A stretch of 64,000 bases of DNA from a virus (IMGVR_UViG_3300042350_003801); one strand, 5' to 3'. Counted from the first letter of the stretch, positions 58,765 through 60,041 are shown. The notes: generated from the sequence alone by a model not told the origin. Numbers and translations: made by a program.

Positions 58765-59214
58765 ATATCCAGACCGCCCCAAACGGTGCCGTCTACCGCT
58801 GACTTATTCCTGGATGTGTCAACTATTTAGGTTGGCAGCGATGTGCTATTACGCCAAAAGAAACTGCATTTTTCCTCGCCACATCACTTACATATGCCAC
58901 CTCTAAGGCCCGACATTACTAAGCATTTCGCAGTCTTGGTGCATTTTCTACTCTTTAAAGGATGGCTGCTTCTAAGCCTACCTTTCGCTGTTAATGAAAA
59001 GAAGTTTTGGGTATTTCCTTTCATTGCCTATTTATCATACACTAAAACTGGGGTTGCGGGAGAAGCGTGTGCCAGTTTGGGAGGTGTCTTAAATGTGGCT
59101 CCAATGTTTTTGAAACCTTGGTTACCTTAGGATATTTAAGCGATTTTGTCAAGGGGTAGTGGACGGTTGGGGGAGTGTCTACTTTTTATTTTGATATTTT
59201 TTGATGGGACGTAT

Positions 59215-59756: not shown

Positions 59757-60041
59757 CGAGAACGGCGTGACTCGAACACGCGACTTACTGCTTAGCTTAC
59801 CACTACGGATTTCCCCGCCATTTCTGTTTGTGGTCTGGACCATCTCTTCATCTTATCTTACGACTTAGATGCTTCCCGTATGGCCTCTACACGTTCAGGA
59901 TTTCTCCCGCTTCGCTCGGGATTGCCATAGTCTTACGACTTTAGGGTTCCCCGAATTTGAGAAGTTACATTTATGAAGTTTCCCTCGTAAAGCTCCTATT
60001 TTCGAAGGCAGTTGTTCTAAATCCAACTGAACTACGTTCCC
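59757..60041 (-). tRNA. trnR: tRNA-Arg(UCU) split by a group I intron (exons 60005-60041 and 59757-59795)
   Basis: Spliced 76-nt cloverleaf GGGAACG..ACTGC-CTT|CTAA-GCAGT..GCGTG-TTCGAGT-CACGC-CGTTCTC-G; A20 Arg identity element. Confidence 0.88.
59796..60004 (-). mobile_element. Group I intron (IC3-like), 209 nt, no internal ORF
   Basis: P1 CUU/GAG with U-G at the splice site; P2 GAAA loop; CTCAAATTCGGGGAACCCT, GGCAATCCCGAGC, GTGTAGAGGCC..CGGGAAGC, AAGAGATGGTCCAG core elements resembling the cyanobacterial trnL intron; terminal G. Confidence 0.88.

Follow-up and report, generated by a model that had tools for sequence, protein, structure and literature searches.

When a tRNA gene is interrupted within its anticodon, it has to be asked whether a working tRNA can still be made from it, where the interruption came from and what maintains it. 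Such a gene was found in the viral sequence IMGVR_UViG_3300042350_003801, a stretch of 64,000 nucleotides (nt) that was analysed as a whole and is referred to here as the window. The gene encodes tRNA-Arg(UCU) and occupies positions 60041-59757 on the minus strand. Our analysis suggests, with a probability of about 80%, that it harbours a real and functional group I intron, derived from introns of the trnL type, in a tRNA-Arg that the phage needs, and that it is located beside a homing endonuclease linked to tRNA-Arg genes.

The split tRNA-Arg(UCU) gene and its intron

The 5′ exon (60041-60005, minus strand; 37 nt, tRNA positions 1-34) contains the acceptor strand, a D arm with G18, G19 and A20, the 5′ strand of the anticodon stem (ACUGC) and then CUU, so that its end, ...CCUU, closes with C32, U33 and U34. 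The 3′ exon (59795-59757, minus strand; 39 nt, positions 35-73) begins with CUAAGCAGU, which provides C35, U36, A37 and A38, and continues with the stem strand GCAGU, a 5-nt variable loop, a standard T arm, the acceptor strand and G73; CCA is not encoded. When the exons were joined, a cloverleaf of 76 nt was obtained, which ARAGORN called as tRNA-Arg(tct). It has a perfect 5-bp anticodon stem, U8, A14, G18G19, A20, U33, A37, the T-loop GTTCGA and G73, and after removal of the intron its anticodon loop is the standard CUUCUAA. The gene is thus split by an intron within the anticodon. The junction (marked by an arrow) is unique, since a 5′ exon ending in U and an intron ending in G are required, and no choice but CUU↓...G↓CUAA then yields a loop of seven nucleotides; CUU↓CUAA is the sole junction that agrees with both group I rules and with a 7-nt anticodon loop. 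Junctions at 33/34 or 36/37 were rejected, as the letters they require are absent from the sequence. ARAGORN in its default mode did not detect a tRNA gene at 60041-59757. When introns were allowed, it proposed a 93-nt tRNA-Arg(tcg), a forced solution with many mispairs, to which the junction checked by hand was preferred.

The intron itself (60004-59796, minus strand) has a length of 209 nt, begins with CGAAAAU and ends in ...GGUAAG. Its terminal G (omega-G, at 59796) is a G in all 11 aligned relatives. The longest stretch free of stop codons counts 48 codons, and the intron therefore lacks an open reading frame (ORF). The Rfam model RF00028 matched 60014-59814 (minus strand) over the full model (1-253) with 66.2 bits and an E value of 1.4e-14, above the gathering score of 50, and our own covariance model R1 scored the intron at 227 bits. 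Such a model was used since an enumeration of splice pairs judged by ARAGORN and a rule-based solver had both given an excess of false solutions. Judged by its sequence and fold, the insertion is a group I intron of the IC3 type and is predicted to be self-splicing. Its IC3 features are the site in the anticodon loop (the 34/35 site of trnL-type introns), the length of 209 nt, a simple P5 hairpin without P5abc extension and the lack of an ORF. Both P2 and P9 bear GAAA tetraloops and receptor-like motifs occur in P5 and P8, a combination characteristic of IC3 introns such as that of Azoarcus.

The fold was derived from an alignment of 11 introns with the identical insertion point, taken from IMG/VR, GenBank phages and bacterial genomes. 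RNAalifold predicted 56 pairs, 34 of which show compensatory changes, and recovered P1, P2, P3, P4, P5, P6/P6a, P8 and a composite P9.0/P9, with the anticodon stem enclosing the whole intron. The P7 pseudoknot was added by hand. With P7 included, 95.3% of the cells in the alignment are paired, compared to 28-42% when the partners are slid; both sides have changed in 37 of the 60 pairs, and none of 500 shuffles reached the observed values. An alignment of 97 sequences, fitted to the covariance model built from the eleven, gave 95.9% paired and 35-44% with slid partners.

All elements of the fold lie on the minus strand. In P1 (60007-59993) the exonic CUU and the first intron base (60007-60004) pair with the internal guide GGAG (59996-59993) as CUUC/GGAG, which places a U34.G wobble at the splice site. 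The C-G, U-A and U.G pairs of this helix are invariant in all 11 sequences, and among the 97 sequences the splice-site pair is U.G in 88 and C-G in seven. P2 (59989-59972) is a hairpin with a GAAA tetraloop, in which all seven pairs are altered on both sides among the relatives, while the GAAA sequences of the P2 and P9 loops are invariant across the 11 sequences. The alignment fold continues with the 5′ strand of P3 (59964-59959) and the P4-P5-P6 domain, together spanning 59964-59891, in which P4 pairs 59954-59949 with 59921-59916, P5 carries the tetraloop-receptor-like motif CCUAAAG...CUAUGG and P6/P6a covers 59915-59891. The core pseudoknot P7/P3/P8 (59885-59838) is supported by covariation. 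Here P7 pairs GGCCAU (59885-59880) with AUGGUC (59843-59838), the 3′ strand of P3 lies at 59877-59872 and the P8 hairpin (59871-59849) contains the receptor-like motif UCUAAG...AUAAGA. Five of six P3 pairs and three of six P7 pairs have changed on both sides in the 11 sequences; GGCCA/UGGUC of the window corresponds to GACUA/UAGUC, GAUCA/UGAUC and GAGCA/UGCUC in relatives. In the P9.0/P9 domain (59834-59799), ACCAC...GUGGU closes a pair of small hairpins; a GAAA tetraloop caps the second, and UAAG with the omega-G follows.

These results agree with an initial annotation, made from the sequence alone, which had described a 209-nt intron between U34 and C35, a CUU/GAG P1 with IC3-like core elements and a canonical 76-nt tRNA-Arg with A20 after its removal. 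The junction and the RF00028 match confirmed the intron, on the minus strand, which had been left unstated; alignment fold and covariation bore out P1 and the core, and the covariance-model search proposed there as a check was positive.

On the basis of this anatomy and of what is established for IC3 introns of pre-tRNAs, the anticodon stem and P1 (exonic CUU with guide GAG and U.G at the cut) would align the exons after transcription. Exogenous guanosine would attack after U34, and the released 5′ exon would then attack after the terminal G at 59796, resulting in a 76-nt tRNA that reads AGA.

Origin and distribution of the intron

A homologous intron at the identical site is present in five distinct phage sequences, at six loci (L002 is the same as L038). 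Loci L002/L038, L230, L234 and L238 are 77-82% identical to the window over exons and intron, with compensatory changes, and a comparison of synteny showed that only tRNA and intron can be aligned. The contig of L038 is a complete genome (G003) of 249,820 bp with terminal repeats. An exact 23-mer from the intron had no matches in IMG/VR. Among the products of the window are baseplate proteins of the T4 type (hub, tube-cap and wedge), tail proteins and NAMPT, and one tail protein is 30-38% identical to its counterparts in T4-like cyanomyoviruses. A megablast search with 24 kb of the window against GenBank phages revealed no relative at the DNA level, and the stretch was found in lake-water metagenomes of many studies.

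To place the intron, a tree was calculated from intron-only columns. The window intron groups with the phage Arg(UCU) introns L002/L038, L230, L234 and L238 (Shimodaira-Hasegawa (SH)-like support 0.86), and this phage Arg clade is sister to phage introns of tRNAs with a UAA anticodon (SH-like 0.87). The bacterial Arg(UCU) introns are united in a clade of their own (0.997), and three more phage Arg(UCU) introns are placed elsewhere in the tree. Forcing all Arg(UCU) introns into a single clade cost 155 log-likelihood units and was rejected (approximately unbiased (AU) test, p=0.00017). The tree supports that a trnL-type intron moved to Arg(UCU) more than once, and the window intron would descend from phage introns of UAA-anticodon tRNAs; the initial annotation had considered colonisation from a trnL-type intron possible. 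A move to Arg(UCU) is conceivable because both anticodon loops begin with C32-U33-U34. The closest relatives outside Arg, L029:10627-10919 and L042:3188-3479, lie in tRNAs of about 75 nt with the anticodon UAA and a short variable loop unlike that of a normal tRNA-Leu.

A known intron of this type is found in trnL(UAA) of Anabaena PCC 7120 (Xu et al. 1990; Zaug et al. 1993; both as cited in PMC3984707). Like the Anabaena intron, the window intron has the U34↓N35 site, a CUU/GAG P1 with U.G, dependence on the anticodon stem and a compact ORF-less IC3 core. It differs in its host, Arg(UCU), in residing on a phage replicon and in having phage introns rather than cyanobacterial chromosomal introns as its nearest relatives.

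How widespread this class is in phages was examined by scanning IMG/VR for one IC3 core motif. The scan gave 47 loci, about 29 of them within tRNA genes, and these loci show two architectures. Class A, to which the window intron belongs, inserts after position 34, with a 5′ exon ending in CUU; its hosts are Leu UAA, Arg UCU and Lys UUU, and its 3′ end is CCAGACCAC...GUGGUAAG. Class B inserts after position 36 or 35 of CAU tRNAs, Asn GUU and one Arg UCU, and has a different 3′ end. The 3′ signature of class A was detected in viral contigs (at least 120) and in bacterial genomes from many phyla (likewise at least 120). Among the matches listed, the anticodon, read with the loop from the model alignment, was UAA in 33, UCU in seven and UUU in three viral cases, and UAA in 29 and UCU in six bacterial cases; ARAGORN assigned Arg(tct) to 13 viral and 12 bacterial matches. 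Among these matches Arg(UCU) is therefore the second commonest host in viral contigs as well as in bacterial genomes and no oddity, and the view that it would be an unusual host site did not hold. Moreover, Arg(UCU) introns have already been reported in Beggiatoaceae (Ca. Maribeggiatoa BOGUAY and Ca. Thiomargarita; MacGregor 2013, as cited in PMC4853749). These share the host tRNA and a related class A 3′ domain with the window intron and fall in the bacterial Arg(UCU) clade. However, in the genomes examined here, the introns of Parabeggiatoa (L296:257-509) and Thiomargarita (L318:5381-5663) lie at 36/37 (CUUCU↓AA) and differ from the window intron in site as well as in clade.

Class A introns are also present, unannotated, in sequenced phages: a 278-nt intron in tRNA-Leu(UAA) of the Agrobacterium jumbo phage Atu_ph07 (L173:771-1132; NC_042013, ~112890-113251), a 238-nt intron at CUU↓UUAA in tRNA-Lys(UUU) of Gordonia phage Daredevil (L174:778-1089; NC_048021) and a split tRNA-Leu(UAA) in a 735-kb huge phage (L175:695-985; LR756501). 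None of the three was reported at the Rfam gathering threshold, yet model R1 scored them at 173-225 bits. Locus L170 likewise gave nothing at the Rfam gathering threshold and 61 bits with R1, and a class A core was recognised by eye in its 3′ half. Class A introns in C34 tRNAs were observed at L176, L219 and L263 (CUC+CUAA), L256 and L257 (CUC+AAAA) and L218 and L206 (CUC+AUAA); in these genes (CCU, CAA, CAU) either a C-G pair replaces U.G at the splice site or the intron lies after U33. In G003, a weak match to the class A model (36 bits) with a group I-like core (..GGUCCAAUC..) was noted at L421:10927-11179 (G003:182926-183178), outside any ARAGORN tRNA.

Class B introns end in ...CACACAAACCxG and were seen in CAU tRNAs (L006, L012, L013, L017, L020-L022, L030, L033, L034 and L040) and in GUU tRNAs (L009, L019, L031 and L047), in some of the Asn genes with insertion after position 35. 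At L032:7345-7633 a tRNA-Arg(UCU) is split at UCU↓AA, so that phage Arg(UCU) genes use both sites. The IC3 introns of Azoarcus tRNA-Ile(CAU) and Agrobacterium tRNA-Arg(CCU) sit after position 36. The window intron resembles them in the GAAA tetraloops of P2 and P9, the receptor-like motifs of P5 and P8, a length of about 200 nt and a location in the anticodon loop, but it lies after position 34; the phage class B introns (CAU, GUU and the Arg-UCU intron of L032 at 36/37) are closer to them. Both bacterial introns go back to Reinhold-Hurek and Shub (1992), and their structures are cited in PMC3984707 and PMC13168695.

Outside tRNA genes, 55 nt of the crAssphage cr111_1 (L001:1501-1555; NC_055880, 66789-66843) are 87% identical to the P7-P9 region of the window intron. 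They lie between a GIY-YIG 'intron endonuclease' gene and a replicative helicase gene, and are probably part of a group I intron in a protein gene of a crAss-like phage that shares the 3′ core. Rfam at the gathering threshold gave no group I match in L001. Within phage tRNA arrays we also observed GOLLD RNA (165 bits, L032:1207-1645) and ROOL RNA (323 bits, L147:5852-6477), and these arrays contain split tRNAs or PF11645 nucleases as well.

According to a 2014 review of bacterial group I introns, all phage introns then known were in protein genes, despite the many tRNA genes of phages (PMC3984707). In the collection of papers that was searched, we found no later one describing group I introns of phage tRNA genes. 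Compared with the literature, the unusual point is the presence of a group I intron in a phage tRNA gene of whatever kind (PMC3984707), and the trnL-type class is common in phage tRNA genes, though unannotated. The window intron has an ordinary chemistry and represents a new combination of host and replicon for a known intron type. Of greater interest are its surroundings: phage tRNA genes contain a large number of introns that are not annotated, and a nuclease lineage specific to tRNA-Arg occurs in several arrangements.

The homing endonuclease beside the gene

The initial annotation did not mention the homing endonuclease gene adjacent to the tRNA gene, which changes the reading of the locus. 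This gene is located at 59637-59215 on the minus strand and encodes 140 amino acids that matched PF11645 with 124.8 bits (cut-off 26.1). PF11645 is the I-Ssp6803I family of homing endonucleases (PMC3424549), which are of the PD-(D/E)XK type. A profile of ten homologues matched the I-Ssp6803I structure (PDB 2OST) with an E value of 2.7e-12; D41, Q54, V55 and K56 are invariant in the 10 homologues, and the catalytic D...(Q/E)xK motif is present. The ORF is not part of the tRNA gene but follows it on the same strand at a distance of 119 nt, and is free-standing rather than intron-encoded. In the spacer (59756-59638, minus strand; 119 nt) we read from the sequence two TATAAATA motifs resembling T4 late promoters, hairpins and an AAGGAG ribosome-binding site. 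The spacers of L425-L440 also have TATAAATA motifs in hairpins, and the same design precedes all 17 close homologues (GUCUUAUAAAUA...UAUAAGAC).

I-Ssp6803I is the enzyme of the tRNA-fMet intron of Synechocystis PCC 6803 and binds pseudo-palindromic DNA of the anticodon arm as a tetramer (Bonocora and Shub 2001; Zhao et al. 2007; PMC3384342; PDB 2OST). The window nuclease belongs to the same PF11645 family. Unlike I-Ssp6803I, it is free-standing and linked to tRNA-Arg(UCU) instead of tRNA-fMet, and its sequence is distant (E value of 0.0015 with a single sequence).

When relatives were gathered by nuclease homology alone, 26 viral loci were obtained. All 18 free-standing homologues follow a tRNA-Arg(UCU) gene of the same strand at a distance of 13-70 nt; they are 71-88% identical to the window nuclease at 17 loci and 62% at L169. 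What comes after the nuclease differs from locus to locus. In two phage contigs, L170 (54% identity) and L441 (48%), the homologue is encoded inside introns of 636 and 653 nt at the 34/35 site of tRNA-Arg(UCU), and the same holds for five bacterial genomes (53-59% identity, introns of 637-672 nt). In the nuclease tree the Arg-linked enzymes form one clade (0.93), divided into a free-standing subclade (0.88), with the window nuclease as its first branch, and an intron-encoded one (0.94). When their ORFs were removed for the alignment, the nuclease-bearing ribozymes were placed in the bacterial-type Arg(UCU) lineage, apart from the window intron. From these separate placements it follows that the window intron and the nuclease next to it have different histories.

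Another PF11645-type ORF was observed at L171:1272-1760, with its own GGAGG ribosome-binding site, inside a tRNA-Asn(GUU)-like gene. The insert of 415 nt sits directly where the anticodon loop meets the 3′ stem strand and is too short to include a ribozyme as well. Further tRNAs of this locus have inserts of 28-56 nt (1764-1874, 2285-2395 and 2494-2635).

The window nuclease ORF is present in contigs of both metatranscriptome libraries that were searched; as these may contain DNA, this is at most a weak hint of expression. DNA variants that have diverged by 3-8% retain nuclease, tRNA and intron in linkage.

Function of the intron and its relation to the nuclease

Whether the intron still splices bears directly on the reading given at the outset. 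If it did not, the locus would be a decaying remnant with a dead tRNA, and the failure of default tRNA finders to recognise the gene would fit this. Contigs of two metatranscriptome and two DNA runs held neither an intron-spanning joint nor an intron-less allele, although contigs cannot show absence, so that the missing joint says nothing either for or against splicing. An RNA match of 45 nt at 59796-59840 was discarded, as it came from the unspliced tRNA-Leu(UAA) intron of another organism, and the very high contig depth at 58947-58993 in all four runs stems from rRNA-like sequence unrelated to the intron. A dead gene is nevertheless very unlikely. All core helices are intact and show compensatory changes relative to the relatives, and the tRNA identity positions are all preserved; the 5′ splice site still has its U.G pair, the intron its terminal G, and P2 and P9 their GAAA tetraloops. 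The gene is kept in the five distinct phage sequences, and the complete relative G003 has just three tRNA genes, Leu(CAA), Pro(UGG) and the split Arg(UCU), the last being its sole tRNA-Arg. That a phage with so few tRNAs has one of them split argues against a dead gene. In addition, AGA is the commonest Arg codon in the long ORFs of the window (43% of Arg codons, at 37.6% G+C). The speculation of the initial annotation that the intron hides the tRNA from anticodon nucleases of the host is scarcely credible. In its favour there is nothing beyond the general observation that tRNAs of phages can evade such enzymes. However, the precursor alone is split, and the ordinary CUUCUAA loop of the working tRNA would be no less accessible than that of other tRNAs; bacterial chromosomal tRNAs, where the benefit does not apply, harbour the intron class just as often, and the adjacent nuclease acts on DNA, not RNA.

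The layout of the locus, with an ORF-less intron (60004-59796) and a free-standing nuclease gene (59637-59215) on the same strand, is that of collaborative homing, and we tentatively propose, at a little under even odds, that intron and nuclease home together. Collaborative homing is known from the free-standing F-CphI and an ORF-less psbA intron of cyanophage S-PM2 (Zeng, Bonocora and Shub 2009, as described in PMC6083498), and T4 mobE promotes the homing of the I-TevIII intron in trans (PMC2790892). The window shares with these cases a T4-like phage, an ORF-less intron in a conserved gene and an adjacent free-standing nuclease gene. It differs in that the target is a tRNA gene, that the nuclease is of the PD-(D/E)XK family, that most relatives of the nuclease lie beside intron-less genes and that cleavage at the insertion site and protection by the intron are predictions here. 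The recognition site of the nuclease should span 34/35, because its relatives live inside introns at this position. The nuclease would cut tRNA-Arg(UCU) genes in competing phages, within or close to the anticodon arm, and through repair of the break from the genome of the window the competitor would acquire the nuclease gene and the intron close to it (trans or collaborative homing). As the intron divides the anticodon arm, it may protect the phage's own gene from the nuclease. The identical 17-nt anticodon arm is uninterrupted at no fewer than 120 viral loci, which are potential recipients. It is plausible that intron and nuclease travel as a two-part selfish element.

Several observations weigh against such a partnership, and they are the same ones that favour the alternative of two independent neighbours, both with a preference for tRNA-Arg(UCU), of which neither helps or protects the other; the intron would then be a vertically inherited passenger, and the nuclease would home alone, with its immunity stemming from something else. 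All 18 free-standing homologues of the nuclease adjoin an intron-less tRNA-Arg. The closest relatives of the intron are found without the nuclease: no PF11645 gene is present in the complete G003, and no such nuclease was found in the fetched flanks of L002/L038, L230, L234 and L238. Partnership of intron and nuclease is thus not general. As ribozyme and nuclease differ in ancestry, two elements favouring the same gene may have met by coincidence. The arm of the window gene (ACTGC/GCAGT) occurs in none of the 18 nuclease-linked intron-less genes, but with a background frequency of only about 5% in an independent sample this absence tells little about a signature of immunity. On the other hand, nucleases of 48-59% identity sit inside introns at the exact 34/35 site, so that the presumed recognition site spans the point at which the window gene is split. 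A double-strand break in or beside the tRNA gene would also co-convert an intron 120-330 bp away, as in the case of T4 mobE with I-TevIII (PMC2790892). Independence of the two elements is a serious possibility that we nevertheless hold to be somewhat improbable.

If collaborative homing is correct, the window would represent a case of it at a tRNA gene, in which the intron provides the phage with immunity to its own nuclease. With similar reserve, one nuclease lineage and one target gene may display, in nature, all stages of the life cycle proposed for mobile group I introns: the nuclease beside an intron-less tRNA-Arg(UCU) (18 phage contigs), beside an unrelated ORF-less intron by which its presumed recognition site is split (the window) and within the intron (in two contigs of phages and the genomes of five bacteria). 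A nuclease strictly linked to tRNA-Arg(UCU) offers a compact system to study how free-standing nucleases and introns unite. For genome annotation, standard tRNA finders overlook the window gene, and the split tRNAs of cultured phages are unannotated too; the tRNA complements of phages, and the codon-usage arguments based on them, are therefore incomplete. For the biology of the introns, the class has jumped repeatedly among tRNAs that share C32-U33-U34 (Leu UAA, Arg UCU and Lys UUU), and, if our interpretation is right, the tRNA genes of phages would be a major, overlooked reservoir of group I introns.

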